Positions 20,092 through 47,254 of a DNA stretch of 64,000 bases are shown piece after piece. The notes under the pieces are model-generated. The model was not told where the DNA came from and searched no databases. It worked only from the letters and a program-made list of their open reading frames with translations. Made by a program: the position numbers and the translations under genes. The number at the start of each line of letters is the position of its first letter. The first letter of the stretch is position 1. The stretch is from a phage, in the sequence record PQ400055.1; one strand, 5' to 3'.

Positions 20092-20120
20092 AGTATAGGG
20101 GATCTCGCGATCCCCGTCAA
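20092..20120 (-). promoter_or_regulatory. sigma70-type promoter (TTGACG-17-TATACT) with GATC-containing palindromic spacer
   Basis: Spacer GGGGATCGCGAGATCCCC carries two Dam sites; followed by leader and AGGAGAATCAAA Shine-Dalgarno. Confidence 0.45.
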
Positions 20121-20124
20121 GCAT

Positions 20125-20673
20125 TTATTTTAAATTTTTTCGAATGTAGTCAGACCATTCCTTCCCTGTCAGTTCGGTCCCATTCTGGAAACTGAAATAT
20201 TCATACGGCATCGAGTCAAGATAAAACAGGATCATACATCGCGCCATATAATACCAATCACGATTAAAGTAAACTACGTTATCGCCAGTACCATCAGCAC
20301 CTTTATCATAACCATCGCGGGTACGGGCGACCCATTGAATAGTATCATTTTTCTCACGGATCGTAACAGGTTCCCAATATCCAGCACATCCAGCATGACC
20401 ACACGAACAAGTAATGAAATATTGTCCTTTTGCTTTGTTGTCATCCCATTCACGATGGATTGGTTCGATCTCGTGAAACAGTGCTAAGCAATCATGATTA
20501 TGCAACACTGGCTTACCATCAATCAATGCATGGAATGTATACAAACGACCCGTAGACAAATAGCTATCCTCACGCTCAACCAGTTCAATAGCAATCTTTT
20601 TAGCTCGTTCTTTGTGTCGTTGTGCTTTACGCTTACGGTTTAATGATTTCATATTCACCTCACACATTATCAA
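20125..20673 (-). CDS. hypothetical protein
   Basis: 182 aa; basic N-terminus, CSCGHAGCAGY cysteine cluster. Confidence 0.5.
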   Translation of the reverse strand: MIMCEVNMKSLNRKRKAQRHKERAKKIAIELVEREDSYLSTGRLYTFHALIDGKPVLHNHDCLALFHEIEPIHREWDDNKAKGQYFITCSCGHAGCAGYWEPVTIREKNDTIQWVARTRDGYDKGADGTGDNVVYFNRDWYYMARCMILFYLDSMPYEYFSFQNGTELTGKEWSDYIRKNLK

Positions 20674-21209
20674 AGGTCGCGATATAGTACATTATGAAAA
20701 TGAGAACTTGCATTACCAATATTGTAGATAATAAATTCTTCATCCGGCGCTTGCGCTACAAATTGAGTATGAGCAACCGCCACAACCTTAAAAATACGAT
20801 CCGTGATCTTGTGTTTAATTTCTGCCCCTACTTCCATAGGAACATATTCATTTGTTTCTGTTTCAGTCGCAAAACAGCCATCTTCTTCATAAGCACGAAC
20901 AAATCGATCGCAATCAGTACGCTTAACAAATTCAAGAGTATACAATTCTCGTGAATTGTCGGTATAGACCAATACAGAATTATTATGATAGCGAATCACA
21001 TACAGGTTATTATCATCGTCAATTACGCAAAAGCTACGGATTCCTTCGCCTTTACTCCAGCAGATATTAACCACCGTTCCTCTAATAAAAAAACTTTCCT
21101 TTAAATTAAAACTAGTCAATGTGCTAGCGTGCATTTTAACAACAACACCATCGCCAATTTCCAGTTTACGAAGTTTAACTTCTTTGTTCAGTACACAAAA
21201 CATCATCAT
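20670..21209 (-). CDS. hypothetical protein
   Basis: 179 aa ORF immediately downstream of a promoter; start overlaps stop of next gene. Confidence 0.5.
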   Translation of the reverse strand: MMMFCVLNKEVKLRKLEIGDGVVVKMHASTLTSFNLKESFFIRGTVVNICWSKGEGIRSFCVIDDDNNLYVIRYHNNSVLVYTDNSRELYTLEFVKRTDCDRFVRAYEEDGCFATETETNEYVPMEVGAEIKHKITDRIFKVVAVAHTQFVAQAPDEEFIIYNIGNASSHFHNVLYRDL

Positions 21210-21238
21210 GTTGTCCTCTCGTTGTTTTCGATGTGAGC

Positions 21239-21266
21239 ATTATACATTAGCTAATCATGTTGTCAA
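21239..21266 (-). promoter_or_regulatory. sigma70-type promoter (TTGACA-16-TATAAT)
   Basis: Exact -35 and -10 hexamers on the minus strand; leader GCTCACATCGAAAACAACGAGAGGA. Confidence 0.5.
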
Positions 21267-21270
21267 CACC

Positions 21271-21305
21271 CCAAAACGAAAAAGCCGACCCTTTCGGATC
21301 GGCTG
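21271..21305 (-). terminator. rho-independent terminator after nrdD
   Basis: AGCCGATCC-gaaa-GGGTCGGCT hairpin followed by TTTTTCGTTTT on the minus strand. Confidence 0.55.
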
Positions 21306-21309
21306 AAAT

Positions 21310-23172
21310 TTACATGTGCTTAACGCGGTTTACCATCTCGGAGTGTTTCCCGTGGTTGAATGGACGCAGATCAACAGATCCAAGATATCCACTAACGCGA
21401 CGGATAACATTCATCTTTTCCAGATTGTCATTACCGCAATCAGGACAAACAAAACCAGACTCGGTCGCTCTCATTTCCTTAGTAGATCCGCATACATGAC
21501 ATACATCAGAAGGAGTATTAACACCGAAGTAGTGCAATTTATCCATTGCATAGTCTACTACAGTTTCAAGACCTTTCAGGTTGTTTTTCATGTCTGGGAA
21601 CTCAACATAAGAGATCATGCCACCGGACGCCAGCCAGTGATAATCTTTCTCAAAGTCAATTTTCTCAAATGGAGTGACTTTCCGGTCTACGTCAAGGTGG
21701 AATGAGTTGGTGTACCAGTCTTTATCGGTAGCACCCTTAACAATACCAAATTGCTCTCGGTCCAGTCGATTAAATCGATAGCAAAGGCTCTCGGCTGGAG
21801 TACCGTAAAGACTAAACCCAAGTCCGGTTTCGTCCTTCCATTTTTCAGTATAATGACGCAAGATCTTAAGAATATGTTTACCGTATCGCTGCGCATCTTC
21901 CGAATCAAACGGATGAACACCAAACAGGACGCTCAATACCTCATGTAAACCAATATATCCAAGAGAGATACTAGCGCGACCATCTTTCAACACTTCCAAA
22001 ATTTCATCGTTTTGATGAATACGGAAAAACGCACCTTCGGTATACAGCACCGGAGCAACATTGGCTTTAGCCCCTTTTAAAGCGTCTACGCGACTCATGA
22101 GCGCATCAAAGCAAATAGGCATACGATTGGCTAGCTCTTGTTCGAATAGCTCAATTCTGCGCATTACAGACGCTTTACCAGCACGACGCGCGGCAATAAG
22201 GGCAATACGCGGAAGATTCAGGGTCACAACACCCAAGTTATTACGTCCGTCTAATACTTCTTCTCCTTTCTCATTATGCCACACACCCAGGAAGCTACGA
22301 CAACCCATCGGGCTAACCGGAACACTAGATCCGGTGATACTACGGTTATTCTTCGCAGAGATATAATCAGGGTAAAGACGCTTACTAGAACATTCCAATG
22401 CAAGTTGCTTAATGTCGTAGTTCGGATCTTCCGGTTTAAGGTTTAATCCTTCTTCTAAGAACATCACCAGCTTAGGAAACACCGGAGTGATACCATCTTT
22501 ACCTAAACCTTTAGTTCGAACGTTCAGGATCGCTTTCTGAATCAGTTTTTCTTCCCAGCTAGTACCCATACCAAAGGTTAAAGTCACAAAAGGCGTTTGA
22601 CCGTTGGTGGAGAACAAAGTGTTGATTTCATATTCCAACGCCTGATATCCGTCTAACGTTTCTTTTTCTGTTTTCTCTTGTGCATAGAGAGTATCAGCTT
22701 TGATTCCGTAGGTTTCGGCATCAGCAAGGTGTTTATAATATGTTTTCTCAACATACGGTGCTAACACCTGATCGATGTTTGCGATTGTGGTCCCGCCATA
22801 TTGATGACTTGCCACCTGTGCGATAATTTGAGCGGTTACAGCACAAGCAACGCCGATTGATTTCGGACTTTCGATTTGTGCGCTACCCAATTTAAAACCA
22901 TTCTCTAACATGTCTTTGAGATTAACAAGACAGCAGTTAGTAAACGGCATAGCGGGTGCATAATCCATATCATGATAATGAATGTCACCGTCTACATGCG
23001 CTTTATAGATGTGCTCAGGTAACACGGTTTTAGCAATCTGTTTAGACACAGCACCAGCAATCAGATCTCGACGTGTCGGGAATGTTCGCGCGTCTTTGTT
23101 CGCGTTCTCTTTGCTTACTTCGTTTTCTTTACCCGTTGCGATCTCTGTAATGTCTTTGATTAGTTTTTCCAT
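21310..23172 (-). CDS. nrdD: anaerobic ribonucleoside-triphosphate reductase NrdD (class III, glycyl radical)
   Basis: 620 aa; C-terminal zinc ribbon CxxC...CxxC and glycyl radical motif RVSGYLG; uninterrupted (no intron evident). Confidence 0.93.
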   Translation of the reverse strand: MEKLIKDITEIATGKENEVSKENANKDARTFPTRRDLIAGAVSKQIAKTVLPEHIYKAHVDGDIHYHDMDYAPAMPFTNCCLVNLKDMLENGFKLGSAQIESPKSIGVACAVTAQIIAQVASHQYGGTTIANIDQVLAPYVEKTYYKHLADAETYGIKADTLYAQEKTEKETLDGYQALEYEINTLFSTNGQTPFVTLTFGMGTSWEEKLIQKAILNVRTKGLGKDGITPVFPKLVMFLEEGLNLKPEDPNYDIKQLALECSSKRLYPDYISAKNNRSITGSSVPVSPMGCRSFLGVWHNEKGEEVLDGRNNLGVVTLNLPRIALIAARRAGKASVMRRIELFEQELANRMPICFDALMSRVDALKGAKANVAPVLYTEGAFFRIHQNDEILEVLKDGRASISLGYIGLHEVLSVLFGVHPFDSEDAQRYGKHILKILRHYTEKWKDETGLGFSLYGTPAESLCYRFNRLDREQFGIVKGATDKDWYTNSFHLDVDRKVTPFEKIDFEKDYHWLASGGMISYVEFPDMKNNLKGLETVVDYAMDKLHYFGVNTPSDVCHVCGSTKEMRATESGFVCPDCGNDNLEKMNVIRRVSGYLGSVDLRPFNHGKHSEMVNRVKHM

Positions 23173-23183
23173 TGTATCACCTA

Positions 23184-23206
23184 TGAAAAAGCGGGATTTC
23201 TCCCGC
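23184..23206 (-). terminator. terminator-like hairpin upstream of nrdD
   Basis: GCGGGA-tttc-TCCCGC followed by TTTTTC on the minus strand. Confidence 0.45.
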
Positions 23207-23216
23207 TCGTTGATAG

Positions 23217-23711
23217 TTATTTTACCAGTTCTGCTAATTCTTTTTCTTTAGCTTCTAGTTCAGCTTTAAGCTGTTTAATCTCTTGTCGCTTCTTATTAGC
23301 GGCTTCCTGCTTACTATTTCGGATAACCTGATCTAGATACAACTCCCAATCCTGAATATTTTTGATAATGTATCCGTCAACATTAATTGGTCGGAGATTC
23401 AGTACAGCTTCCAGTTTAGTCGCAAAAACTTTAATTGCTGGCGTGAAGTATTCATATTCGTTATCTTCAAACCAATAACCTAGACTTGCATTATCAATAC
23501 GAAGACGAAGTTCAAGATCAAGGTCTTTATCTTCGGTGTAAAGATCTTTCACCTGACCCAGCGAACTAACAACAACTTTAAAACGAATTTTATCTACACC
23601 ACCAAACACATCAGTAAGTATACCAGCAATTGAGCTATTAGCGCAAGATTGGTCGCTGAATGCGTCAAGGTTTTCTTTAGTTACAGTATACCAAACATCT
23701 TGTACCCACAT
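23217..23711 (-). CDS. hypothetical protein with coiled-coil C-terminus
   Basis: 164 aa; C-terminal KKRQEIKQLKAELEAKEKELAELVK. Confidence 0.5.
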   Translation of the reverse strand: MWVQDVWYTVTKENLDAFSDQSCANSSIAGILTDVFGGVDKIRFKVVVSSLGQVKDLYTEDKDLDLELRLRIDNASLGYWFEDNEYEYFTPAIKVFATKLEAVLNLRPINVDGYIIKNIQDWELYLDQVIRNSKQEAANKKRQEIKQLKAELEAKEKELAELVK

Positions 23712-23741
23712 AATATAATCCTCTCGTTGTTAAGTGGGAGT

Positions 23742-23769
23742 ATTATAGCATACTCCCTTCGCATGTCAA
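23742..23769 (-). promoter_or_regulatory. sigma70-type promoter (TTGACA-16-TATAAT) with -10 inside GGGAGTA/TACTCCC palindrome
   Basis: Reverse complement TTGACA..GGGAGTAtgcTATAATACTCCC; -35 overlaps the upstream stop codon. Confidence 0.5.
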
Positions 23770-24944
23770 GCACTAACTTTTTTCTTTACTGCTTTCACCT
23801 TCTGGCGAATTGCTCGAATCTCTTCGATCTCTTTTTCAGTCTCTTTAACAATTTCTTTGCGATTCTGAATATCTGTATCTAGATTATCATCAAGTTTAGG
23901 CAGCATGTCAATCAAGAACTTTTTAAAGTCTTTCAGGTTTCGGATAACAGCACCTTCACCCATTACCGCCACGCCTACACCATCCGGCAGATCACCAAAC
24001 AGCTTAACCAGTTCAGACAGATGATCATGATCTTCTAGTGCTTCTTCCGGTTCAGATGGCAGTTCAACAAAGTTATAACGTTCATCATTGCTGATCAAGT
24101 GATACCAGCAAAGACCGAAAGATTTCGGTGTATATTCTACACCATCAATTTCAACCGCGTCAACACTTCCATAATCATCTACTTTAGTTACCTTAAATCC
24201 TTGTCCCAGCTTTTGAACAATTTCAACAACATGACTTGATACAGTTTCAGCGGTAAACCAATATGGCAAATTATGCTGATTTGGTTTGTAGCGTTCACCT
24301 ACTTTAAATCTCTGACCATCCGCTTGCATAGAATGAAATTGTTGTTTCGTGATTTCCGCGAAGTATTCAAATTCGCTACCGTCAAACAAGCAATTCCATT
24401 GATCACAAAAACGGTCCGCCTTGACGGTTTCACCTTTCGCGGTGATCATGGTAGCTGATCCGTGCAATTCTTCTTCAACTAAAAAGCCATATTCGACAAA
24501 ATCAACAAGTTTCATGGCTTCTTTGTGCTCTGGGTCATGCTCTCCCCAGAATCGCTTAAATTCTTGCAAACCTTCTGGGGTAAACGAATAACATTTACCT
24601 TTTTCAAAGTAAGTCGGCATTGCATCCTCTTTCTTGTTCATCGCTTCGTATGCCTCTTTTGAGATACGTTTAAAGTATTTGCGCTCATTGTGCATAATCA
24701 TAGTAGACCAATAATAAACGATATCCTCAGCGGAATAAACTACATCTCCAGCTTCAATAGTAATAACATGACCGTGGTCATCTTTTTCTAATACTTTAAA
24801 GCCCTTTTCTACGATTTCAGCAACCCGAATATGACCACGGCGCGAAGCATCGGTCAGAATAATTGAATAGCGAGAAAAGTCTAGAAACTCATCTTTACCG
24901 CCTTCACGGAATGCATAGTAATGACCTTCAAAGAATTTAGCCAT
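23766..24944 (-). CDS. hypothetical protein (paralog family, two domain copies plus coiled coil)
   Basis: 392 aa; repeated RKYFKRISKEAYE-type elements shared with 25001..25585; C-terminal charged helix. Confidence 0.55.
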   Translation of the reverse strand: MAKFFEGHYYAFREGGKDEFLDFSRYSIILTDASRRGHIRVAEIVEKGFKVLEKDDHGHVITIEAGDVVYSAEDIVYYWSTMIMHNERKYFKRISKEAYEAMNKKEDAMPTYFEKGKCYSFTPEGLQEFKRFWGEHDPEHKEAMKLVDFVEYGFLVEEELHGSATMITAKGETVKADRFCDQWNCLFDGSEFEYFAEITKQQFHSMQADGQRFKVGERYKPNQHNLPYWFTAETVSSHVVEIVQKLGQGFKVTKVDDYGSVDAVEIDGVEYTPKSFGLCWYHLISNDERYNFVELPSEPEEALEDHDHLSELVKLFGDLPDGVGVAVMGEGAVIRNLKDFKKFLIDMLPKLDDNLDTDIQNRKEIVKETEKEIEEIRAIRQKVKAVKKKVSA

Positions 24945-24975
24945 AATATAATCCTCTCGTTGTTTAGATGGGAGT

Positions 24976-25004
24976 ATCTTACTACTCCCGTTTCATCATG
25001 TCAA
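24976..25004 (-). promoter_or_regulatory. sigma70-type promoter (TTGACA-17-TAAGAT) in palindrome
   Basis: GGGAGTAgTAAGATACTCCC with -10 in the loop; 17 nt spacer. Confidence 0.45.
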
Positions 25005-25585
25005 GCGTTAAATGACTTTTGGATCTCTTTCAGTTCTTCCACTTTCTCGGCGCTGAATTTAGCGTAGGTATCATGTCGAATAATTTCACTTTCAAGAAAG
25101 GTTTCCAGTCGAGATCTATTTTCAATAAGGAACTCTTTCAGGTCTTCCGCGTTCTTGATAAAGATTTTATTGTCGGTAATGTCATCTTCAATCGCAAAGG
25201 AGATAGAGCGAACTTTACCAAACAAGTTAATCAGATCTTCCAGAGATTCTTCTTTCTTAACTGGTTTCATTTCTTCAAACTGCTTTTTAGTGATGCGTTT
25301 AAAGTATTTGCGCTCGCTTGCATCAATCATGATTGACGCACCCTCATAATCATGAGTTTCTACCAAATACACTTTACCCATAACATTAACCGTAAGAACT
25401 TTAAAGCCCCTGTGAAGCACACCATACAGGAACTTGTTATGTTGTGGGTAGCGTTTAACAAATTCCTCTGCGGACTCAGCATTACGGAAAGTGTAATAAC
25501 GACCTCGTTCAAAAACAGCATCATTTGAAGACTTAGCCGGATACAATTTATACGTTTTCTGTACCATAATATAATCCTCTATCAT
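25001..25585 (-). CDS. hypothetical protein (paralog family)
   Basis: 194 aa; shares ERKYFKRITKKQFEEM with 23766..24944. Confidence 0.5.
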   Translation of the reverse strand: MIEDYIMVQKTYKLYPAKSSNDAVFERGRYYTFRNAESAEEFVKRYPQHNKFLYGVLHRGFKVLTVNVMGKVYLVETHDYEGASIMIDASERKYFKRITKKQFEEMKPVKKEESLEDLINLFGKVRSISFAIEDDITDNKIFIKNAEDLKEFLIENRSRLETFLESEIIRHDTYAKFSAEKVEELKEIQKSFNA

Positions 25586-25854
25586 TTCACTAATTGAACA
25601 GCACGGAACAGAATGCGCTCACACGGAAGCAGCATAAATTCCCAACGCGGATCAAAGTCTTTAGCGGTGTACGTTTTCCCATCAACCGAGATTTCACTTA
25701 CATAACCAACAGGTGACACTTTAAGAACAGTAAACCCATTCTTGATGACTTCGTAGGTATCTTTCACCCCTTCGTATTCATCATCTAAGAAGTCTTTATG
25801 TGCTTGCTCAGATTTAAAAACATAGGCCACACCGGATTTAAACATCTTACGCAT
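25582..25854 (-). CDS. hypothetical protein (paralog family, single domain)
   Basis: Start at internal ATG (M21); MRKMFKSGVAYVFK...ISVDGKTYTAKDF. Confidence 0.45.
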   Translation of the reverse strand: MRKMFKSGVAYVFKSEQAHKDFLDDEYEGVKDTYEVIKNGFTVLKVSPVGYVSEISVDGKTYTAKDFDPRWEFMLLPCERILFRAVQLVK

Positions 25855-25885
25855 TGTTGATTCTCCTTCTTGATTAGATGGGAGT

Positions 25886-25914
25886 ATTTTACTACTCCCA
25901 TTTCTTATTGTCAA
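25886..25914 (-). promoter_or_regulatory. sigma70-type promoter (TTGACA-17-TAAAAT) in palindrome
   Basis: GGGAGTAgTAAAATACTCCC; immediately downstream of the endonuclease VII stop. Confidence 0.45.
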
Positions 25915-25917
25915 CTA

Positions 25918-26391
25918 CTATCTTAATCTTTGTATGAATTGTTTCTTATACTTCTTCGTGATCTCTTCTCTTGTATCAGCGTCGCAGTAATCGAAACCTT
26001 CTGCGTCCATAATAGCAACCATCTCCGCGCGTGTCAAGCGTGAAAATCGTTTTACTTTATCAACAGCATATTGAGGATGTAAATGATTGTTGGTGTAGTC
26101 TCCTTTGATGTAATTAACATAGTTTGTAGCCCAAACAACGAAATCAGCACCTAAAGCACCAACACCAAACCGTTTAAAGTCTCCGGTCAACGATCCTTCT
26201 AGGCGGTTGCAACACGAATGAAGCAATCCCCTTACGCGGCCTTGCCCTTTACCATCTAGATCGTGGTCGTGGTCAAGATGGTTTTTGCTCATATCCTCAA
26301 AAAGTGGCAATTGACAAAGGGGGCAAATGCCCCCCTGTTTTTCGAATAGTTCTTGTTTGTACTCTTTAGCACTCTTAGCAGTCAGTAACAT
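25918..26391 (-). CDS. 49: recombination endonuclease VII (Holliday junction resolvase gp49)
   Basis: Start at internal ATG (M6); GGICPLCQ...HLDHDHDL...GLLHSCCN zinc/His motifs closely match T4 endo VII. Confidence 0.85.
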   Translation of the reverse strand: MLLTAKSAKEYKQELFEKQGGICPLCQLPLFEDMSKNHLDHDHDLDGKGQGRVRGLLHSCCNRLEGSLTGDFKRFGVGALGADFVVWATNYVNYIKGDYTNNHLHPQYAVDKVKRFSRLTRAEMVAIMDAEGFDYCDADTREEITKKYKKQFIQRLR

Positions 26392-26415
26392 AAATTCACC
26401 CTCCAAAGAAGGTAT

Positions 26416-26697
26416 TTAACCATTAATCTTGTTTTTGACTACAAAGGATCGGAACTCATCAAAACCACCGATATAATCACCATCATAGAAAATCTGCGGC
26501 ATGGTGGCAATAACTTCTACCCCTGCGCGATCCTGAATATCGGCAATGATAGAATCAATCTTTACCGGGCGACCGTTTTCGTCCACACCATCATTAACCG
26601 GAATGTAGATGTAAGGGATCTTACGCGCTTCACAAAGGCGCTTTGCATTCTGGCAATACTTACAGTTGTAACCTTCAAAACCAAAAATTTCTACCAT
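26416..26697 (-). CDS. nrdC: NrdC thioredoxin
   Basis: Start at internal ATG (M5); active site CKYC, NAKRL, MPQIF...GDYIGGFDEF like T4 NrdC. Confidence 0.8.
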   Translation of the reverse strand: MVEIFGFEGYNCKYCQNAKRLCEARKIPYIYIPVNDGVDENGRPVKIDSIIADIQDRAGVEVIATMPQIFYDGDYIGGFDEFRSFVVKNKING

Positions 26698-26705
26698 GTT
26701 ATACC

Positions 26706-27518
26706 TCAATCTACGTTAGTTACATAAACTTCTTGCGTATCAGAAGACTTGCCACCTGAACGATCTAGGCAATAGGTCTTATTCAACAAGACGCAGTTTA
26801 AATCATTCCGCTTGATAAAGTCAAGAAGATGATCATTTGCCTTTCCCTTATGATGCGTGACATTACTTATACCAAACTGAAAACCACGCGCCATAATAGA
26901 TTCTACCCACTGATAGAATTTAATCTCTTCCTCGTCACTCCAGAACTTATTGTATTCCGCAGAAGTGATAAGGTACGGCGGGTCCAAATAAACGAAATCA
27001 CCTGGCAAGATCTCGATCTCGTCATAACGACCAGAAGTAAAACTGATTCGACCGTCTTTGTTTTCTTCCTTAAAATTCAGGACGCGCTCTACCGCGTTTT
27101 CGTTAAAAGTCCGTCGGCCAAAATTAGCATTAAATTCTCCCTTCCTGTTATGGCGGTTAATGTTGCTAAAACTGTGCTGAATCAACACAAACAGAGATAG
27201 AGGGTCTGGATTCTCGTTATACTTCTTACGGAATGTCATGTAAGCGTCTTTATCTTCGCGAGACAAACCATTTTCGGCAATAATACGCTTGATCGTAGAA
27301 ACCGGATCAGGACACTCATCAATGGCCTTGTAAGCGTCAATTAAGCGATGATCATAGTCATTAGCCAGTACATCACCTTCAACATACAGAGACACGCTCA
27401 AGCCACCACAAAAGGCATCAACAAAGCGGTTATAGTGCTTAGGGAAATATTTACTAACACCGGGCAATAACTTTTCCTTATTGCCCGTATAGGGAATTAA
27501 ACCTAATGCTTTCTTCAT
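26706..27518 (-). CDS. dam: Dam DNA N6-adenine methyltransferase
   Basis: 270 aa; PYTGNK, NRFVDAFCGGLSVSL, DPPYLITSAEYNKFWSDEEE almost identical to the T4 Dam motifs. Confidence 0.88.
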   Translation of the reverse strand: MKKALGLIPYTGNKEKLLPGVSKYFPKHYNRFVDAFCGGLSVSLYVEGDVLANDYDHRLIDAYKAIDECPDPVSTIKRIIAENGLSREDKDAYMTFRKKYNENPDPLSLFVLIQHSFSNINRHNRKGEFNANFGRRTFNENAVERVLNFKEENKDGRISFTSGRYDEIEILPGDFVYLDPPYLITSAEYNKFWSDEEEIKFYQWVESIMARGFQFGISNVTHHKGKANDHLLDFIKRNDLNCVLLNKTYCLDRSGGKSSDTQEVYVTNVD

Positions 27519-27949
27519 TATCCCTTCCTCAAATAAGTTCGCTCAATCTCTACCAGTTCGAAAAATTCATCCCAATCACACGGAAAGTTGCAGTTTCCGA
27601 AATGATCCTCTTTGTAAAGTTCTTTACCGGATGGCAGCTTAATATCTGTTACGCTGTAGTATCCACAACAATCGCAATCACCCTCTGTATATTCTGTTTT
27701 AGTCGGAATATCCATCATTGCCAGATACAAAGGTACATCGTCTTGCTCAAAGTTCATGTAACCTTCATGGTCAAACGAGACAAAATTGTCATCACCCAAA
27801 AAAGGGATATAATGGTCATAATCGGTTACAGGTTGACCGTGTAATTCCCATTCTACAATTTTAACATTACCACTAAATTTTATACCCATAATTTCAACAA
27901 GAAAATGAGTATCGTCAATGTAAATCTTACTAGGGGTTGGATAAACCAT
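27518..27949 (-). CDS. hypothetical protein
   Basis: 143 aa minus-strand ORF, stop/start overlap with dam. Confidence 0.5.
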   Translation of the reverse strand: MVYPTPSKIYIDDTHFLVEIMGIKFSGNVKIVEWELHGQPVTDYDHYIPFLGDDNFVSFDHEGYMNFEQDDVPLYLAMMDIPTKTEYTEGDCDCCGYYSVTDIKLPSGKELYKEDHFGNCNFPCDWDEFFELVEIERTYLRKG

Positions 27950-27959
27950 TATATAATCC

Positions 27960-28256
27960 TCATATATCAGAGAATAGAATCTCTGTTAGCTTCACTGACT
28001 GCTCTCTGAATGTTAGCGTATACTCGAAAGGAAAGTCAACACCTAATTTCAGAAGAGAATAGCCTACCGCCTCTTTATGCTTATCGGTTAGGGCGATCCT
28101 AACCAATTCCCGTTGAATCTCTTTAGGCGGTGAATGGATAGTAACACGGGTATCATGCAATGTCCAGTCACCATTTCGAATTAAGATTAACGGTTTATCA
28201 TCATTGAAGATCACCGACCCCTTTCCGGTCGGTGAGTGTTTTATACTAATCATCAA
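27960..28256 (-). CDS. hypothetical protein
   Basis: 98 aa ORF. Confidence 0.45.
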   Translation of the reverse strand: MMISIKHSPTGKGSVIFNDDKPLILIRNGDWTLHDTRVTIHSPPKEIQRELVRIALTDKHKEAVGYSLLKLGVDFPFEYTLTFREQSVKLTEILFSDI

Positions 28257-28753: not shown

Positions 28754-28767
28754 AAATTCACCTCACA

Positions 28768-29112
28768 TTATTTCACGTTAACGCCGTTATCAATCCAGCC
28801 GACGCTATTTGGTTTAACAGTTTTACCATAGGATGCATACTTAATCAAGCATGGTTTAACATCATTATCAAATCTTCCTAAACGTACTCCCAAATCAGGA
28901 ATATCCATGTATGCGGCTTTATATCCCCATGTACCGTATTCAGAATCAATCTCAACCGGACGGCCTTTAAAAGCATACACTACACCGTGACGGTCAACGA
29001 TAACATAGCGATAGCCAGCCGGAAGATACACAGTTTCGCCGTAAACTTTAACTGGAGTAGCAGAAGAGATAAACATAATATAATCCTCACATCGTTCATT
29101 TGATGCGGTCAT
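28768..29112 (-). CDS. hypothetical protein
   Basis: 114 aa ORF. Confidence 0.45.
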   Translation of the reverse strand: MTASNERCEDYIMFISSATPVKVYGETVYLPAGYRYVIVDRHGVVYAFKGRPVEIDSEYGTWGYKAAYMDIPDLGVRLGRFDNDVKPCLIKYASYGKTVKPNSVGWIDNGVNVK

Positions 29113-29146
29113 TATATGATAACCGCATTTTCATGTCAACAGTTTT

Positions 29147-29521
29147 TTAAAAATCTTCTTCCGGTTTATATCGACCGTCATCGACTGGTTTTGGACTGAA
29201 TCCTTTATGCGTGCGCGGCTTCGCTTCCGGTTTACCAGCAATCATCAAACCAAAACATTTCAGCCCCTTATAACACATAACAATATCAACCACGGTCCAC
29301 GTTATAGGCCAGACGATTGCAGCAATACAAAATGCTCCTGTATCGACCTCTTTGGTGTCCTTGTCGAATCTGGCATACAAGCAGAATACTAGATACGAGA
29401 TCATTGCACCAGTAATCCAGATATAAAGTACATTAACAATATCTTGTGTTGTCAAATTGTCCTCCTTACATGTCTTGCAGTGCATAAAAGCATTTTTCTT
29501 CGTAGTCATAGAAAATGTCAA
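29147..29521 (-). CDS. predicted membrane protein
   Basis: Track start is a non-ATG codon (true start probably at internal M5 or M13); two hydrophobic segments. Confidence 0.45.
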   Translation of the reverse strand: MTFSMTTKKNAFMHCKTCKEDNLTTQDIVNVLYIWITGAMISYLVFCLYARFDKDTKEVDTGAFCIAAIVWPITWTVVDIVMCYKGLKCFGLMIAGKPEAKPRTHKGFSPKPVDDGRYKPEEDF

Positions 29522-29744
29522 AGTATGCTTTTTCTACATACTCGCCATTGATCCAAGCGGCAGTAACAATCAGAGTGGTCCAGGTAGATCCGCTCTCAAC
29601 GGTAAAGGTTTTAATACCCAGCTTCGCTGCCAAGTCGAACGCAAACCGGACGCAACCACGGCAGGAAGTGATATTGGAAGTTTTGATTTTAAAGCCACCG
29701 CGAGTTTTAGAAATTTCTACTTTAGCGAAAGACAGGTTGCTCAT
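29466..29744 (-). CDS. hypothetical protein
   Basis: Start at internal ATG (M20) directly after the conserved leader and AAGGAG. Confidence 0.45.
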   Translation of the reverse strand: MSNLSFAKVEISKTRGGFKIKTSNITSCRGCVRFAFDLAAKLGIKTFTVESGSTWTTLIVTAAWINGEYVEKAYFDIFYDYEEKCFYALQDM

Positions 29745-29786
29745 TTTGATTCTCCTTAAGAAAGTGTGTTTCGTTTTGATGTGTGT

Positions 29787-29815
29787 AGTATAGGGGATCA
29801 CCGATCCCCTGTCAA
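29787..29815 (-). promoter_or_regulatory. sigma70-type promoter (TTGACA-17-TATACT) with GATC palindrome spacer
   Basis: Spacer GGGGATCGGTGATCCCC (two GATC sites); conserved leader ACATCAAAACGAAACACACTTTCTTAAGGAG. Confidence 0.45.
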
Positions 29816-29831
29816 CAACTTTTTTATGATT

Positions 29832-30152
29832 TTAGTGAATTAACTCTACACCAAAATGAGGCACAGAGAACGCCTTACAAAACACATATTCATCATGTTT
29901 AGGAATCGCCCCTAACCGCTCTATTTCGCTCGCTAACACTATAAACTGTTTATCTGGTGCATATGCCTTGCGTGCTTCAACAACGCACGGAAAACGCGTT
30001 TTAGAGAGTTCTGGATAGTTTTCCGAATCCAACAGGACAATGAATACCCTGTTACATTGATTGTAGAATCCTGTTTTTGATTTCATCAAGTTTTCTTCTC
30101 TGTACAATTCGTGCAATCTTCCTTTCATGATTTCGTTGGTTCTTGTCTTCAC
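29832..30152 (-). CDS. hypothetical protein
   Basis: 106 aa ORF; overlaps next ORF so the start is probably internal. Confidence 0.4.
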   Translation of the reverse strand: MKTRTNEIMKGRLHELYREENLMKSKTGFYNQCNRVFIVLLDSENYPELSKTRFPCVVEARKAYAPDKQFIVLASEIERLGAIPKHDEYVFCKAFSVPHFGVELIH

Positions 30153-30369: not shown

Positions 30370-30388
30370 ATACTTTTCATTTCACACA

Positions 30389-31568: not shown

Positions 31569-31830
31569 TACATGCTTTTAATGCATCGGTCGCGGTGTCA
31601 TAGCGAGTATTATCATAGCACCAATAACCATCTGTCAACTGATAAATTAATCCATCCTTTTTAGCTTCGATGAAAGATAACTCTTTGAAAGTTTCTACTT
31701 TCTTTGCTGATAATCCACGGTCACGGCGTTTATAGAGTTTAGCTAAAATGCGTTCAGCTTGTTCCTCTTTATCGCCAGACAGATCCCAGATGATGTTTCT
31801 TATATGCTTGATTAATTGTTCAGTGGTCAT
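31540..31830 (-). CDS. hypothetical protein
   Basis: 96 aa ORF downstream of a promoter. Confidence 0.45.
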   Translation of the reverse strand: MTTEQLIKHIRNIIWDLSGDKEEQAERILAKLYKRRDRGLSAKKVETFKELSFIEAKKDGLIYQLTDGYWCYDNTRYDTATDALKACNDHLRKTTI

Positions 31831-31859
31831 CTTTGATTCTCCTTAGTTGGTATGCGTGC

Positions 31860-31887
31860 ATTATAGCATTGTGATTATCTTTGTCAA
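31860..31887 (-). promoter_or_regulatory. sigma70-type promoter (TTGACA-16-TATAAT)
   Basis: Exact hexamers; conserved leader and AGGAGAATCAAA. Confidence 0.5.
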
Positions 31888-31891
31888 CACC

Positions 31892-31925
31892 CAAAAACAA
31901 AAAAGGCTATCCCGAAGGATAGCCC
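31892..31925 (-). terminator. rho-independent terminator after glycine-rich gene
   Basis: GGCTATCC-ttcg-GGATAGCC hairpin plus T-run on the minus strand. Confidence 0.55.
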
Positions 31926-31931
31926 ATAAAA

Positions 31932-32771: not shown

Positions 32772-32993
32772 TTAGATGACCTCTGCTTCACCATTCAGGA
32801 AGAAAGACCATGTTTTGTTAGGATAGCGAAGCGCCCATGATTCAGCGGTTTTAACACCAGCTTCGAACAATTGACGGCTGGTTACTTTAGCCATACCATC
32901 TTCGATGGCAACGTTTTCAATAATCATCGGGTACTTAGCGCCACGCATGAAACCGAAGCCAGCGGAAGATTTGATAATTTTAACCGTTGCCAT
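32772..32993 (-). CDS. hypothetical protein
   Basis: 73 aa ORF downstream of a promoter. Confidence 0.45.
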   Translation of the reverse strand: MATVKIIKSSAGFGFMRGAKYPMIIENVAIEDGMAKVTSRQLFEAGVKTAESWALRYPNKTWSFFLNGEAEVI

Positions 32994-33034
32994 TTTTGAT
33001 TCTCCTAGAAAGTGTATCTCGTTTCGATGTGTGT

Positions 33035-33063
33035 ATTATGCAATAACACCGGATCGCTGTCAA
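33035..33063 (-). promoter_or_regulatory. sigma70-type promoter (TTGACA-17-CATAAT)
   Basis: Conserved leader ACACACATCGAAACGAGATACACTTTCTAGGAGAATCAAA. Confidence 0.45.
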
Positions 33064-33081
33064 CACTTTCTAAGAAAAATT

Positions 33082-33366
33082 TTAAATTAATCTAATATAG
33101 CCCAGAATTTCAGCACTTTTAGCCAGTCCTAAAACTTCCCATTCAAGGTCGCCGTAGTCATAATTTGCAACCATCAACTGACCATTTTTCATGCAGCATT
33201 CATGAGAGAAAATTTGCCCCGCATAAACTACGATAGTAATAAACTTTCCTGATTCTGGCGGTGTGGAAGACAAAGCGACCATATGACCATTCAGCTTAGT
33301 CACCAGTGATGGAACAATAAAATTCGGGCTTACCTGAATACCGTTAAATTCGTTTGTGTCTTTCAT
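33082..33366 (-). CDS. hypothetical protein
   Basis: 94 aa ORF. Confidence 0.45.
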   Translation of the reverse strand: MKDTNEFNGIQVSPNFIVPSLVTKLNGHMVALSSTPPESGKFITIVVYAGQIFSHECCMKNGQLMVANYDYGDLEWEVLGLAKSAEILGYIRLI

Positions 33367-34048: not shown

Positions 34049-34247
34049 TCTTCACGGTCTCCATAATTGTTTTGTAAGCCAGTTTAAGATGATCACCGAA
34101 AAACTTTGCGGTGTTACCCTTCGGATCGCGGAGCATGGTTTCTACGATCTCATCGGCAGTAACAATTTCTCCTTTCTTTGCTGCATGTTCTACCATATAC
34201 TTCAAAGTTTCTTCGGAAGCAAGTGCTGCCGCTACTGGATTAATCAT
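34038..34247 (-). CDS. hypothetical protein
   Basis: 69 aa ORF downstream of a promoter. Confidence 0.45.
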   Translation of the reverse strand: MINPVAAALASEETLKYMVEHAAKKGEIVTADEIVETMLRDPKGNTAKFFGDHLKLAYKTIMETVKNAK

Positions 34248-34277
34248 TTTTGATTCTCCTTTGTTGTCGATGTGTGC

Positions 34278-34306
34278 ATTATGCTATACCCTATTCCGGT
34301 TGTCAA
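34278..34306 (-). promoter_or_regulatory. sigma70-type promoter (TTGACA-17-CATAAT)
   Basis: Same architecture and leader as other copies. Confidence 0.45.
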
Positions 34307-34310
34307 CACC

Positions 34311-34342
34311 TAAAAACGAAAAAGCCACCCTTTCGGATGGCT
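34311..34342 (-). terminator. rho-independent terminator
   Basis: GCCATCC-gaaa-GGGTGGC hairpin plus TTTTTCGTTTTT on the minus strand. Confidence 0.5.
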
Positions 34343-34575
34343 TTTGATTATATTTTATTCACGTCCATTTGTATAGTAGTGTTTGAATCGACCTTTGCTA
34401 AACTAGTTAAACATAGTAACCAATTCACCATCCCTTTCCAATGATAACCCTTCCTCGTCTTAGACGGGTCTTCCGATTCGGCAGTAATTGAACACGCGAA
34501 AGTATGAGGAAGCCAAATAGTTGTGTTAATGCTAGTATTCTTTTACTTCTGGTATGCATCCCACGGTGACTAACA

Positions 34576-35263: not shown

Positions 35264-35331
35264 AAGTCATTCCCCCAGATTAAAAATATTCAGTTATATT
35301 TATAATCTGGGGCTTTATTTATGATTAACTC

Positions 35332-37068: not shown

Positions 37069-37083
37069 AATATAAACCTCTCA

Positions 37084-37443: not shown

Positions 37444-37450
37444 ATATTCC

Positions 37451-45466: not shown

Positions 45467-45685
45467 TTATTTATATCGCTTTCTCTCGCGACGTTTTTGA
45501 TCTTCTTCCTTGATAGAGTCAAATGCATCAAAAAGGCACATGAGACTGATAATGAACATAACCGTATTTTCTACGATATCCCACGTCTTCGCATCAGTAC
45601 AGATCCCCCAAACGGTAAGAAATGCAAATAGTGCAGAAGAGATCACAAGCATGATACTTGCTAAGATATAAAAAGTCATTTTCAT
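45467..45685 (-). CDS. small membrane protein
   Basis: 72 aa, hydrophobic N-terminus, basic C-terminus. Confidence 0.4.
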   Translation of the reverse strand: MKMTFYILASIMLVISSALFAFLTVWGICTDAKTWDIVENTVMFIISLMCLFDAFDSIKEEDQKRRERKRYK

Positions 45686-45876
45686 GGTTTTACCTCAATT
45701 TTTCGATATTCATCACACATCCACGCAGTAAGCAAGAATCCCAGCACATAAGCAACAAAATACGTTAATGCTTCTTCTGGTTTCGTGCTATGTATCATCA
45801 GTAAACCAGCGAGAAAGGTCTTAACAATTACATTTAAAATAATTAGCCACGCAAATAATTTCATCGTTTGCCCCAT
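45682..45876 (-). CDS. small membrane protein
   Basis: 64 aa hydrophobic. Confidence 0.4.
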   Translation of the reverse strand: MGQTMKLFAWLIILNVIVKTFLAGLLMIHSTKPEEALTYFVAYVLGFLLTAWMCDEYRKIEVKP

Positions 45877-46100
45877 TTCGGTCGAGTCTTTTCAAACTTA
45901 TACATTCCGTAACAATCTCGAATCATCCACGTAACAAGAGCACCAGTCAACACAGACAATACACAGAAGAAGTAAAACGGTCCGGTTGCATTATCAACAT
46001 GAGCAAGCCATGTAAAGAAAACACATGCAAGGAACGTGAAGAACATCATAAAGCACAAGAAAGCAAAATATTTTATACTACTCATAGCGCCACCATACAA
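45861..46100 (-). CDS. small membrane protein
   Basis: 79 aa hydrophobic. Confidence 0.4.
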   Translation of the reverse strand: MYGGAMSSIKYFAFLCFMMFFTFLACVFFTWLAHVDNATGPFYFFCVLSVLTGALVTWMIRDCYGMYKFEKTRPKWGKR

Positions 46101-46188
46101 CAGATCACAAGAAACCCCAACGCAATAAGAATTGCATCAAATTTAGTGAACTCCGGTCCACCTATCAACATCATTCGTTCCTGTTCAT

Positions 46189-46386
46189 TCATAGATCACA
46201 GAGCCATCTGAAAGCACCACATAAAGCGAGCAGAATACTAGGTATAAACGAGACTAAAACAAGACTACAAAAATCATCTAAGGTAACGCCGGAATAACTA
46301 CCTACTGTAACAACACCGATTATCAGACACAGAAAGAAAACAAATGCAACCAGAAACAAAGTATTGCTAAACAGTTTAGTGATCAT
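46189..46386 (-). CDS. small membrane protein
   Basis: Track ORF 46189..46431 trimmed to internal ATG (M16). Confidence 0.35.
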   Translation of the reverse strand: MITKLFSNTLFLVAFVFFLCLIIGVVTVGSYSGVTLDDFCSLVLVSFIPSILLALCGAFRWLCDL

Positions 46387-46579
46387 TAGACACCCCACGA
46401 CGATCAATTTCAAAAACTTTTTTACCATCAACGAAGCATGTCACAACTGCCTCGTTGACTTCCGCAAATTGTTGTGTTACCCACTTAAGGTCAGAGCGAA
46501 ACAATGTTCTATTAATAACAAATGTTTTACCGCTCTTATCCTTACCCATAAATTTTGCTTTAACCATATCCAATTCCAT
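46376..46579 (-). CDS. hypothetical protein
   Basis: 67 aa ORF. Confidence 0.4.
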   Translation of the reverse strand: MELDMVKAKFMGKDKSGKTFVINRTLFRSDLKWVTQQFAEVNEAVVTCFVDGKKVFEIDRRGVSNDH

Positions 46580-46588
46580 ATTATCACC

Positions 46589-46747
46589 TTATTTGCCAAT
46601 CGCTAAACCCAATCCGAAGAGAGCACCCGATGCTACAGTATACCCGAAAGTTTCAAATGCAGTAAAGATATCTAAGCCACCAGCTAACAGAGTTGCAGTA
46701 AACAGAGTACCAGCTACGAACATAAAAGTTTTACCGATGAATTTCAT
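46589..46747 (-). CDS. small membrane peptide (52 aa)
   Basis: Below track cutoff; ATG directly after conserved leader and AAGGAGAATCAAA; glycine-zipper-like hydrophobic sequence. Confidence 0.3.
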   Translation of the reverse strand: MKFIGKTFMFVAGTLFTATLLAGGLDIFTAFETFGYTVASGALFGLGLAIGK

Positions 46748-46778
46748 TTTGATTCTCCTTTCGTTTGTTTGTGGGGGT

Positions 46779-46807
46779 ATCTTACTACCCCCGTTTCATG
46801 TTGTCAA
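46779..46807 (-). promoter_or_regulatory. sigma70-type promoter (TTGACA-17-TAAGAT) in GGGGGTA/TACCCCC palindrome
   Basis: Same architecture as the 38918 and 24976 copies. Confidence 0.45.
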
Positions 46808-46813
46808 CTATTT

Positions 46814-47188
46814 TTAAGAATATTTTACTTCGTCTACAATGTCTTTCATGACATTGATTTCCATTCCGGTCAGAACACGTTGGAACATGTGCTGCACATA
46901 CGCTTTCAGGTATTCATTTGATGGCTTACTATCGAAAGTCTTTTTAGTGTAGTAGTCATCACCGAAAGCTACTGTAATTACATTTTCGTCGTCGCTCCAA
47001 GCGATATAAGCAAATTTGCCGTTATCCCAGAAGCGAGCACTAATTGCTACTTTTGTTGAATCGAATCCTACTTCGCTGTGAGATTCAAGAACTACTTGTG
47101 TGCCAGTTTCTTTATGAATGTAGTAGCGGGATACTAAGTCAAAGTTACGGGTGTAGTGACATTCGAATTTATCTTTAAACATCATCAT
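46814..47188 (-). CDS. hypothetical protein
   Basis: Start at internal ATG (M23) preceded by AGGAGAATCAAA; the track N-terminus covers the promoter/leader. Confidence 0.45.
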   Translation of the reverse strand: MMMFKDKFECHYTRNFDLVSRYYIHKETGTQVVLESHSEVGFDSTKVAISARFWDNGKFAYIAWSDDENVITVAFGDDYYTKKTFDSKPSNEYLKAYVQHMFQRVLTGMEINVMKDIVDEVKYS

Positions 47189-47225
47189 TTTGATTCTCCT
47201 AAGTGTGTTTCGTTTCGATATGTGC

Positions 47226-47254
47226 ATTATGCTATAGTCGTTTATGGTTGTCAA
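47226..47254 (-). promoter_or_regulatory. sigma70-type promoter (TTGACA-17-CATAAT)
   Basis: Leader GCACATATCGAAACGAAACACACTTAGGAGAATCAAA. Confidence 0.45.

Follow-up and report, generated by a model that had tools for sequence, protein, structure and literature searches.

PeSLs (promoter-early stem-loops) of the T4-like phages RB49 and phi1 combine a sigma-70 consensus promoter with an AT-rich tract on its upstream side and a polyG/polyC stem-loop, and about 51-52 of them are found per genome, chiefly upstream of ORFans in hyperplastic regions (PMC2839356). The stem-loop lies most commonly in the interval separating -35 from -10 or over the -10; positions in the upstream AT-rich region, over the -35 and downstream of the -10 have also been described (PMC2839356). 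According to the reporter assays of that study, a lacZ fusion of wild-type phi1 PeSL206/205 gives ~13,000 Miller units, and the stem-loop of phi1 PeSL211/210 cuts lacZ expression as strongly as rrnB T1. The stem-loop reporter described there covers one hairpin, situated in the spacer, and in it termination is not separable from RNA processing or instability (PMC2839356). The role published for PeSLs includes modular gene shuffling (Arbiol et al. 2010, Genome Biol Evol 2:140, PMC2839356; Comeau et al. 2014, PMC4122927), and their authors speculate that the GGGG...CCCC sequence is bound by a recombination protein. In RB49, the early-promoter consensus, with T or C at -12 and C-rich positions -3 to -1, is reported to fit the 5'-end mapping of early transcripts (PMC1524935). 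Moron-type or integron-like phage cassettes (Hendrix et al. 2000, as discussed in PMC2839356) resemble PeSLs in that each small accessory gene brings along a promoter and a terminator of its own; PeSLs differ from those cassettes in that recombination acts on the conserved regulatory sequence itself, and an integrase is not known for them.

The DNA analysed here (the window, 64,000 nucleotides of a phage genome, record PQ400055.1) shares 92-98.6% identity with Krischvirus genomes, among them RB49, Phi1, JSE and GEC-3S, which places the phage in this genus as an RB49-like T4-type coliphage. Judged by their sequence, the promoter repeats that it carries correspond to the published PeSL cassettes of RB49/phi1-type T4-like phages (Krischvirus), a reading to which we assign a probability of about 0.9. 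PeSL repeats are already known (Arbiol et al. 2010; Comeau et al. 2014), and because the repeats equal these cassettes the finding is an ordinary one for RB49-like coliphages. Genus, promoter with AT-rich tract, positions of the GGGG...CCCC stem-loop, 3' Shine-Dalgarno (SD) and ATG, and location in a hyperplastic region, ahead of small ORFans, are all the same as in RB49 and phi1, with no essential difference between the two sets. In RB49 and Phi1 the counterpart of the region is nrdD...regB...dmd...57B, and phi1 PeSL211/210 reads TTGACAGGGGATCGGTGATCCCCTTATAAT, its hairpin being identical to that of the window PeSL at 29815. No Rfam family matched anywhere in the window at gathering thresholds.

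The pattern TTGACA-N15-19-TANNNT occurs 34 times, 29 of them on the minus strand, against 5.06 expected, and 0 of 100 shuffles reach 34. A stricter scan of 20092-47254, which required an SD and an ATG downstream of the promoter pattern, yielded exactly 16 intergenic sites, all on the minus strand, with the first base of the -35 at 20120, 21266, 23769, 25004, 25914, 29139, 29815, 31887, 33063, 34306, 38946, 44303, 44996, 45265, 46807 and 47254. Each is a near-consensus sigma-70 promoter directed towards the downstream gene. The -35 is TTGACA in 15 sites and TTGACG in one, the spacer measures 17 nt in 13 sites and 16 nt in three, and the -10 reads TATAAT, TATACT, TAAGAT, TAAAAT, TAATAT, TACAAT or CATAAT. 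The initial annotation had counted at least 16 minus-strand sites with TTGACA, a 16-17 nt spacer and a TATAAT-like -10, and all 16 were recovered, the one with TTGACG included; its description of them as early promoters agrees with the RB49 early-promoter consensus and with the lacZ-tested PeSL of RB49-type phages. The inferred +1 is A at every site. A 5' AT-rich tract holding the upstream stop codon and a 3' SD with start codon are seen, for example in taaaaaagttgTTGACA...AGGAGAATCAAAATG. Every site has an intergenic orthologue in RB49 and/or Phi1.

The sites were grouped by the position of the hairpin: in class A the -10 lies in the hairpin loop, in class B the hairpin lies in the spacer, and in class C a canonical terminator stands upstream of the -35. 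All cassettes that follow are on the minus strand unless stated. Class A holds seven sites. In the cassette at 23711-23815 (-35 at 23769) the loop closed by the stem GGGAGTAT/ATACTCCC holds most of the -10 (TGcTATAAT); the SD is GAGAGGATTATATT and the ATG is at 23711. At 24944-25050 (-35 at 25004) the stem GGGAGTA/TACTCCC encloses the loop GTAAGA (-10 TAAGAT) ahead of the ATG at 24944 of a frd.2/goF-like gene. The stem at 25854-25960 (-35 at 25914; SD GGAGAAUCAAC; ATG at 25854) is (T)GGGAGTA/TACTCCC(A), with the -10 TAAAAT in the loop, and its orthologues in GEC-3S, Phi1 and Whisky carry a sense-strand G:T variant. The cassette at 29076-29185 (-35 at 29139; ATG at 29076) places the -10 TATAAT in the loop of TGCGGTTAT/ATGACCGCA, a 10-bp stem with one G:T (U:G) pair. 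Two cassettes share the stem GGGGGTA/TACCCCC: 38889-38995 (-35 at 38946), which has the -10 TAATAT in the loop, the SD GGAGUAUUAAA and an ATG at 38889 and heads the regB-containing operon, and 46747-46855 (-35 at 46807), with the -10 TAAGAT in the loop, the SD GGAGAAUCAAA and an ATG at 46747. The seventh, at 44232-44350 (-35 at 44303), has the stem GGGTGTAT/ATACACCC with the -10 CATAAT in the loop, a long leader, the SD GGAGUAUCAAA and an ATG at 44232.

Class B comprises three sites. The cassette at 20049-20165 has the -35 TTGACG (20120-20115), the spacer hairpin GGGGATC-GCGA-GATCCCC, the -10 TATACT, a leader beginning AUCAAGACGAG, the SD GGAGAAUCAAA and an ATG at 20049. At 29744-29860 (-35 at 29815) the spacer hairpin GGGGATC-GGT-GATCCCC precedes a long leader beginning AUCAAAACGAAACACAC, the SD GGAGAAUCAAA and the ATG at 29744, and at 44938-45040 (-35 at 44996) the hairpin (A)GGGGAG-GATAA-CTCCCC(T) is followed by the -10 TACAAT, the SD GGAGGACCAAA and an ATG at 44938.

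In the five class C cassettes the terminator lies just 5' of the -35 instead. At 21209-21310 (-35 at 21266; -10 TATAAT; SD GAGAGGAC; ATG at 21209) it reads AGCCGATCC-GAAA-GGGTCGGCT plus a T-run and is terminator-like on the minus strand at 21304-21283. The cassette at 31830-31930, downstream of gp38, carries GGGCTATCC-TTCG-GGATAGCC(T) and a T-run ahead of the -35 at 31887 (TGcTATAAT; SD GGAGAAUCAAA; ATG at 31830), and the one at 34247-34350 carries AAAAGCCATCC-GAAA-GGGTGGCTTTT, likewise with a T-run, ahead of the -35 at 34306 (CATAAT; SD GGAGAAUCAAA; ATG at 34247). At 45190-45315 the terminator CCACTC-TTCG-GAGTGG is followed by a T-run and an AT-rich tract (-35 at 45265; CATAAT; long leader; SD GGAGAAUCAAA; ATG at 45190); of a class A stem, the 3' arm alone (ACACCC) remains here. 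At 47188-47300 the terminator ACCCCGAAA-ATT-TTTCGGGGT, with a T-run, precedes the -35 (A)TTGACA at 47254 and the -10 CATAAT; the leader is long, the SD is GGAGAAUCAAA and the ATG is at 47188. The sole site with a degenerate stem (GTGTTAT/ATAATAC) is 32993-33110, which has its -35 at 33063, the -10 CATAAT, a long leader, the SD GGAGAAUCAAA and an ATG at 32993. PeSL-type members were also found beyond 20092-47254, at 12650(-), 5832(-), 3103(-) and 62043(+). The first of these (12596-12695, minus strand) is of class B, with TTGACG, the spacer hairpin CGGGGA-GAAA-TCCCCG and the -10 TATACT; the last (61998-62102, plus strand) is of class C, with a terminator and T-run, TTGACA-16-TATAAT and the leader GCTCACATCTAAACAACGGAGGATAAATT-ATG.

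Perfect stems of 6 bp or longer, situated in the interval from the -35 to +2, are present at nine of the 16 sites, compared with 0.29 expected from shuffles and with 4% of random genomic windows; the stem with the G:T pair at 29139 makes a tenth hairpin site. The -10 in the loop (seven sites) or a hairpin spacer (three), which the initial annotation had noticed in many copies, thus occurs in 10 of 16 and matches published PeSL subclasses. Counting the five upstream terminators, 15 of the 16 sites carry one strong stem-loop each. No cassette contains both a promoter hairpin and an upstream canonical terminator (hypergeometric p ~0.0014), suggesting that the two positions are interchangeable. 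Orthologues of all 16 sites have intact stems in up to eight related phages, with varying loops and flanking spacer bases, so that the inverted repeats are kept in relatives. A single consensus structure for all class A copies failed, the 5' arm standing in two registers, and covariation was therefore analysed in two alignments, one per register. In the first register 100% of the cells are paired, three of eight pairs have changed in both partners, and none of 500 shuffles attains the covariation score; the second adds one further compensatory pair. IMG/VR viral contigs searched with two PeSL-proximal proteins returned one or two near-identical Krischvirus contigs and no added divergence.

A GC-rich hairpin followed directly by a U-tract on the transcribed strand was found in the five class C elements, and where class C stems contain a G:T pair the sense fold is ~5 kcal/mol more stable. 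On the sense strand no U-tract follows the class A and B stems; the sequence there is ATCGAAAC, ACAAAC or TATACTAC. By the classical rule these hairpins would therefore be weak intrinsic terminators, and by analogy with the published assay they are best described as attenuator-like rather than as canonical intrinsic terminators. Class A hairpins, with the -10 in the loop, would be expected to terminate like the spacer class that was assayed.

The initial annotation had offered an operator, a cruciform or a plus-strand terminator for the inverted repeats. Acting as DNA, they could serve as operator for a dimeric regulator of phage or host origin, as the target of a recombination protein such as the PeSL authors envisage, or as a cruciform that masks the -10 under supercoiling and thereby tunes promoter firing. 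The stems are perfect palindromes over core promoter elements, and two class B spacers contain two GATC Dam sites each, dam being encoded in the window. Between orthologues, a loop may be replaced by its exact reverse complement (GGT/ACC at 29815, GCGA/TCGC at 20120), a change at the DNA level. However, paralogous cassettes of one genome hold both loop versions, so that conversion between PeSLs explains the swaps without a cruciform; being equally good, it led us to discard loop inversion as cruciform evidence. The stem sequence varies by copy (GGGAGTA, GGGGGTA, GGGTGTA, GCGGTTAT, GGGGATC, GGGGAG) and pairing alone is kept, which argues for a structure rather than a protein-recognition sequence. 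The stems also tolerate G:T wobble pairs, and they shift relative to the -35 and -10, even to an upstream position as an ordinary terminator, which is impossible for a promoter operator. Arms of 6-8 bp are, moreover, short for cruciform extrusion. A DNA-level element is accordingly improbable in our view.

As plus-strand or bidirectional intrinsic terminators, the hairpins would stop antisense (for example late) transcription into the early region. A simple scan finds terminator-like sequences on the plus strand at 38909-38934(+) and 25876-25903(+). Past the stem this strand is moderately T-rich (GTTTCATGTT), and folding of the antisense strand is favoured by 2-5 kcal/mol at 25004, 25914, 29815 and 44303. 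At the first three the gain arises because flanking bases add G:U pairs, which allow a slightly longer antisense stem there and at 38946; these extra pairs fall in the conserved +1 region and the spacer and are common to close paralogues, and they represent at most one or two events. Against this, non-Watson-Crick pairs inside the core stems amount to seven G:T and no A:C on the sense strand, a bias of 7 to 0 towards pairs that become A:C mismatches in the antisense RNA, and in five cassettes the hairpin is replaced by clear sense-strand terminators with the T-run on the minus strand. The late promoter TATAAATA is absent from the plus strand between 1 and 52 kb, the two plus-strand copies at 52745 and 63557 face away from the region, and strong sigma-70-like sites are concentrated on the minus strand as given above. 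We consider antisense termination highly improbable as the main function of the hairpins. The published reporter result, that the stem-loop lowers downstream expression, also favours a sense-strand terminator or attenuator over all three initial proposals (PMC2839356). The sense-strand wobble bias and the exclusivity of hairpin positions, both counted here, do not appear in the PeSL papers, which make no mention of RegB, GGAG sites or antisense transcription (PMC2839356, PMC4122927).

The leaders were initially described as conserved, with a common motif before the ATG and a GGAG cleavable by RegB. These claims held in part. The leader opens with AUC at +1 in 14 of 16 sites, but the long form ATCGAAACGAAACACAC (at most three mismatches) is limited to five copies (0.27 expected). 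The pre-ATG motif AGGAGAATCAAA, allowing one mismatch, is present at 10 of 16 sites and missing from the other six, and GGAG lies in the SD of 12, the remaining four carrying GAGAGGATTATATT or GAGAGGACAAC. The regB endoribonuclease gene is indeed encoded in the window, at 38127-38549 on the minus strand (Pfam PF10715, E = 2.2e-48). A small ORF upstream of regB, annotated as RegB-like in one related record, had no Pfam hit and no RegB similarity.

The RegB/S1 consensus reported for T4 early mRNAs is GGAGRAYARAA (Durand et al. 2006, PMC1702504; review PMC3014915). The SD GGAGAAUCAAA agrees with it at 10 of 11 positions; its mismatch is a C at position 8, which is among the most conserved A positions of the consensus. 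PeSL-proximal SDs match at 9-10 of 11 positions in 12 of 16 cases, compared with 4 of 47 internal genes at the same threshold (at least 9/11), and 17 occurrences with at most one mismatch are found in total (9.5 expected). The predicted leaders are weakly structured (MFE -0.7 to -8.6 kcal/mol), with a mean unpaired probability over the site of 0.31-0.72. As here, T4 RegB sites have GGAG in the SD of early promoter-proximal genes, followed by an A-rich tract; at position 8, T4 sites strongly prefer A, whereas the window leaders have C. The SD of regB itself (GGAUAAUAAAA) contains GGAU, the same as reported for RB49. In the accounts of RegB cited above, about a third of intergenic GGAG sites in T4 are cut efficiently, the RB49 enzyme is one of three divergent RegB sequences, and the regB SD is the only RB49 site cited as tested for cleavage (PMC1702504; PMC3014915); an alignment of cleavage-site sequences from RB49 forms Fig. 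3A of PMC1702504. Cleavage of the GGAGAAUCAAA leaders by RegB is a plausible prediction.

We propose that each cassette consists of an AT-rich tract that includes the upstream gene's stop codon, a near-consensus promoter for host sigma-70 that would fire immediately after infection, one GC-rich stem-loop (upstream of the -35, filling the spacer or enclosing the -10), a short leader, rich in A and with little structure, whose first base is an A seven nucleotides past the -10, and a strong SD with ATG. Because the cassette's own transcript starts just downstream of the stem, the hairpin would form only in read-through RNA from upstream, where it may act as terminator or attenuator and insulate each small early transcription unit. 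At ~100 bp and ~50 copies per genome, the cassettes would also provide homology for recombination, by which flanking small genes may be inserted, deleted or swapped. Two indels or replacements relative to related phages have their breakpoint 23-87 nt upstream of a PeSL -35 (20143; 34354/34393). Two of about 10 distinct indel sites in the region abut a PeSL (20143; 34354-34569); the remaining sites are homing-endonuclease or intragenic, and most indels that distinguish the window from related phages are homing-endonuclease insertions away from PeSLs.

A more tentative reading, to which we give somewhat less than even odds, is that the cassette is a self-limiting module with three functions, namely promoter, insulator hairpin and, in most copies, a built-in RegB/S1 site (GGAGAAUCAAA) in the SD. 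The initiation region of a minority of cassettes is of a second conserved type, GAGGAUUAUAUUAUG, which on this reading would be spared by RegB and could be under the control of a different regulator. Less strongly, bidirectional termination could be added for the hairpins that hold the -10 in their loop. If the three-function reading is true, expression of a gene shuffled behind a PeSL would begin at once and be shut down at the post-transcriptional level by the RegB that the phage itself encodes.

A described element was rediscovered here, which confirms that PeSLs are recognisable from sequence alone, and the phage enlarges the set of Krischvirus genomes by one whose 16 cassettes in this hyperplastic region are all conserved. 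Of modest interest are the means by which a promoter-overlapping hairpin without a U-tract lowers read-through, and a possible link, through the conserved GGAGAAUCAAA leader, between the cassettes and the RegB-mediated shut-off of early genes. The two points would refine the picture of how T4-type phages wire newly acquired genes into the early programme.

The flagged region, searched with one 4-kb and one 25-kb piece, matched about 100 phage records, and the near-full-length matches were all Krischvirus (RB49-like coliphages of the T4 type) at 92-98.6% identity, RB49, Phi1, JSE and GEC-3S among them. Its counterpart in RB49 and Phi1 is the nrdD - gene 49 - dam - gp38 - rI - tk - vs - regB - dmd - 57B stretch, and the genes of the region, the majority small hypothetical ORFs, lie nearly all on the minus strand. 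The pattern TTGACA-N15-19-TANNNT was found 34 times (29 on the minus strand) against 5.06 expected, a count reached by 0 of 100 shuffles. A stricter scan, requiring in addition a downstream SD and ATG, returned exactly 16 intergenic minus-strand sites between 20092, the -10 of the first, and 47254, the -35 of the last. Their -35 elements start at 20120, 21266, 23769, 25004, 25914, 29139, 29815, 31887, 33063, 34306, 38946, 44303, 44996, 45265, 46807 and 47254. The spacer is 17 nt long in 13 sites and 16 nt in three, the base 7 nt past the -10 is A in all 16, and AUC opens the leader in 14.

The element is the already published promoter-early stem-loop, PeSL (here named by the coordinate of the first base of its -35), so that the early promoter family proposed in the initial annotation is borne out by the recovered sites, by their enrichment and by the literature. 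PeSLs of RB49 and phi1 combine a sigma-70 consensus promoter, preceded by an AT-rich tract, with a polyG/polyC stem-loop, and end 3' in an SD and start codon; five subclasses differ in stem-loop position, most commonly between -35 and -10 or overlapping -10, and of the ~51-52 copies per genome most precede ORFans in hyperplastic regions (Arbiol et al. 2010, PMC2839356). In the same work, PeSL206/205 gave promoter activity of ~13,000 Miller units, most clones in the promoter test acquired down-mutations in -35 or -10, and the PeSL211/210 stem-loop was as strong as rrnB T1 in lowering expression of lacZ placed downstream (PMC2839356). An RB49 early-promoter consensus, with T/C at -12 and C-rich from -3 to -1, had been derived earlier (Nolan et al. 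2006, PMC1524935).

Hairpins at the -10 or in the spacer were confirmed. Perfect stems of 6 bp or more were present between -35 and +2 in 9 of 16 sites, compared with 0.29 expected from shuffles and 4% of random genomic windows, and site 29139 adds a tenth hairpin, whose 10-bp stem has one G:T pair. In class A (23769, 25004, 25914, 29139, 38946, 44303 and 46807, minus strand) the loop holds most of the -10; in class B (20120, 29815 and 44996, with 12650 outside the 20092-47254 range, all minus strand) the hairpin fills the spacer. Class C (21266, 31887, 34306, 45265 and 47254, minus strand; outside the range, 62043 on the plus strand) has no promoter hairpin and carries an ordinary terminator, a stem with a T-run, directly upstream of the -35. 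Site 33063 has a degenerate stem only. No cassette among the 16 combines a promoter hairpin with an upstream terminator (hypergeometric p ~0.0014), indicating one stem-loop per cassette whose position floats.

The phi1 PeSL211/210 sequence, read directly (...GTTGTTGACAGGGGATCGGTGATCCCCTTATAATACACACATCAAAACGAAACACACTTTCTTAAACGGAGAATCAAAAATG), has a hairpin identical to that of PeSL 29815 and a nearly identical leader; the published terminator test thus directly covers the class B hairpin of the window. By analogy, class A hairpins may terminate likewise. Two GATC Dam sites fall between -35 and -10 in each of two class B spacer hairpins, GGGGATCGCGAGATCCCC and GGGGATCGGTGATCCCC (at 20097-20114 and 29793-29809 on the minus strand). 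The phage encodes dam at 26706-27518(-), and GATC occurs about once per 178 bp in these genomes, with no depletion.

Two further cassette settings were observed. A plus-strand PeSL-type cassette at 61998-62102 (terminator with T-run, TTGACA-16-TATAAT, A/C-rich leader) precedes an 85-aa ORF, whose orthologue in relatives (RB49p130, phi1p130) is a lone small gene on the plus strand amid minus-strand genes. Promoter cassettes at 5771-5832 and 3076-3103 (minus strand) flank an ORF of 892 aa that starts at 5771 and presumably encodes the DNA polymerase of gene 43. This arrangement agrees with PeSLs having been noted at the borders of g43 in RB49 and phi1 (PMC2839356).

The initial annotation had read the inverted repeats as possible operators, cruciforms or plus-strand terminators of antisense late transcription. 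Orthologues of all 16 sites exist in up to eight relatives (RB49, Phi1, JSE, JK32, SFHK24, GEC-3S, E26 and Whisky), and among them the stems are kept while loops and neighbouring spacer bases vary. Class A retains pairing but not sequence, with stems GGGAGTA/TACTCCC, GGGGGTA/TACCCCC, GGGTGTAT/ATACACCC and GCGGTTAT/ATGACCGC. Every cell is paired in one register, where 3 of 8 pairs are altered on both sides and the covariation score is reached by 0 of 500 shuffles; the other register adds one compensatory pair. Because pairing is conserved while sequence changes, these data speak for selection on a structure, not on a sequence recognised by a protein, and neither the operator nor the cruciform is supported. 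Every non-Watson-Crick pair in the core stems is a G:T on the minus (sense) strand; class C contributes four such cases and class A three, all independent, and A:C pairs are absent. The antisense stem can be extended by flanking G:U pairs in four copies (25004, 25914, 38946 and 29815), two of which a simple scan scored as terminator-like on the plus strand; however, these extra pairs fall within the conserved +1 region and the spacer in copies that are close paralogues, and the plus strand of 1-52 kb contains no late promoter TATAAATA. Together with the sense-only wobble, this leaves an antisense-terminator role unsupported.

Between orthologues, the spacer-hairpin loops of two PeSLs are swapped for their exact reverse complement: at PeSL 29815 (29787-29815, minus strand) GGT in the window and RB49 is ACC in JK32, and at PeSL 20120 (20092-20120, minus strand) GCGA in the window is TCGC in E26. 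Both versions occur in paralogous phi1 cassettes (comparison sequence L013, about 5040-5100 and 6580-6650), and either an in-place loop flip or conversion between PeSLs could be the cause.

The leaders are ~50% A and weakly structured. The conserved leader and pre-ATG motif of the initial annotation were both over-generalised: AGGAGAATCAAA occurs at no more than one mismatch in 10 of 16 copies, and the long leader ATCGAAACGAAACACAC is present in only 5. The SD contains GGAG in 12 copies and is GAGAGGATTATATT or GAGAGGACAAC in the other four. A second repeated initiation motif, GAGGATTATATTATG, has 11 matches at no more than one mismatch against 0 expected (1703, 16601, 23709, 24942, 25565, 27947, 29074, 31527, 37066, 43295 and 52242, minus strand), behind PeSL promoters and also at internal genes. 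This motif is not of the RegB type, and we take it to resemble the AU-rich RegA-type initiation regions of T4.

RegB is encoded in the window, as had been claimed, at 38127-38549(-) (PF10715, E = 2.2e-48), and its SD, GGAUAAUAAAA, agrees with the GGAU SD at which RB49 regB is reported to be cut in vivo. The T4 RegB/S1 target is an 11-nt single-stranded site, GGAGRAYARAA (PMC1702504). The PeSL motif GGAGAAUCAAA matches it at 10 of 11 positions and has C at position 8, where the A of the T4 consensus is among the most conserved bases. Matches of at least 9/11 were found in 12 of 16 PeSL-proximal SDs versus 4 of 47 internal genes, a comparison confounded by cassette paralogy. RB49 RegB is divergent, and the PeSL papers (PMC2839356, PMC4122927) make no mention of RegB. 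Cleavage of PeSL leaders by RegB is plausible, as a sensible extrapolation from the T4 RegB/S1 sites. A 111-aa ORF at 38557-38889 (minus strand), between PeSL 38946 and regB, is annotated as RegB endoribonuclease in JK32; this looks wrong, as the ORF has no Pfam match and BLASTP showed no similarity between it and the neighbouring RegB.

As a repeated ~100-bp unit, the cassette could offer homology for recombination. PeSL x PeSL recombination yields mini-circles, and PeSL-mediated modular shuffling has been proposed (PMC2839356) and extended to other T4-like phages (Comeau et al. 2014, PMC4122927). Two differences between the window and related phages lie next to PeSLs: in SFHK24 a gene is replaced, with a breakpoint 23 nt upstream of the PeSL 20120 -35, and JK32 and SFHK24 carry an extra ~2.1-kb ORF just upstream of the PeSL 34306 terminator. 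Immediately upstream of that terminator the window has an ORF-poor gap (34310-34575), where Phi1 has a small extra ORF. Most remaining indels are homing-endonuclease insertions elsewhere. Relatives (comparison sequences L004, L001 and L005) carry extra genes at window positions ~22293, 26708-26802, 40116-40143 and 41305-41329, all absent from the window and none adjoining a PeSL; among them are genes annotated as homing endonucleases in JSE, GEC-3S and JK32, one of which splits nrdD in JSE, and, at 41305, a 576-bp ORF of other or unassigned function.

The cassette most likely works as a read-through attenuator and insulator. Host RNA polymerase would fire from the PeSL promoter and, since the transcript would begin just 3' of the stem, the cassette's own mRNA would lack the hairpin. 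Class A and B stems have no U-tract on the sense strand and so are not intrinsic terminators in the classical sense; the attenuation observed could come from termination or pausing, or else from processing and instability. The hairpin would form only in RNA coming from upstream, where read-through would be attenuated, and each small early unit would thereby be insulated.
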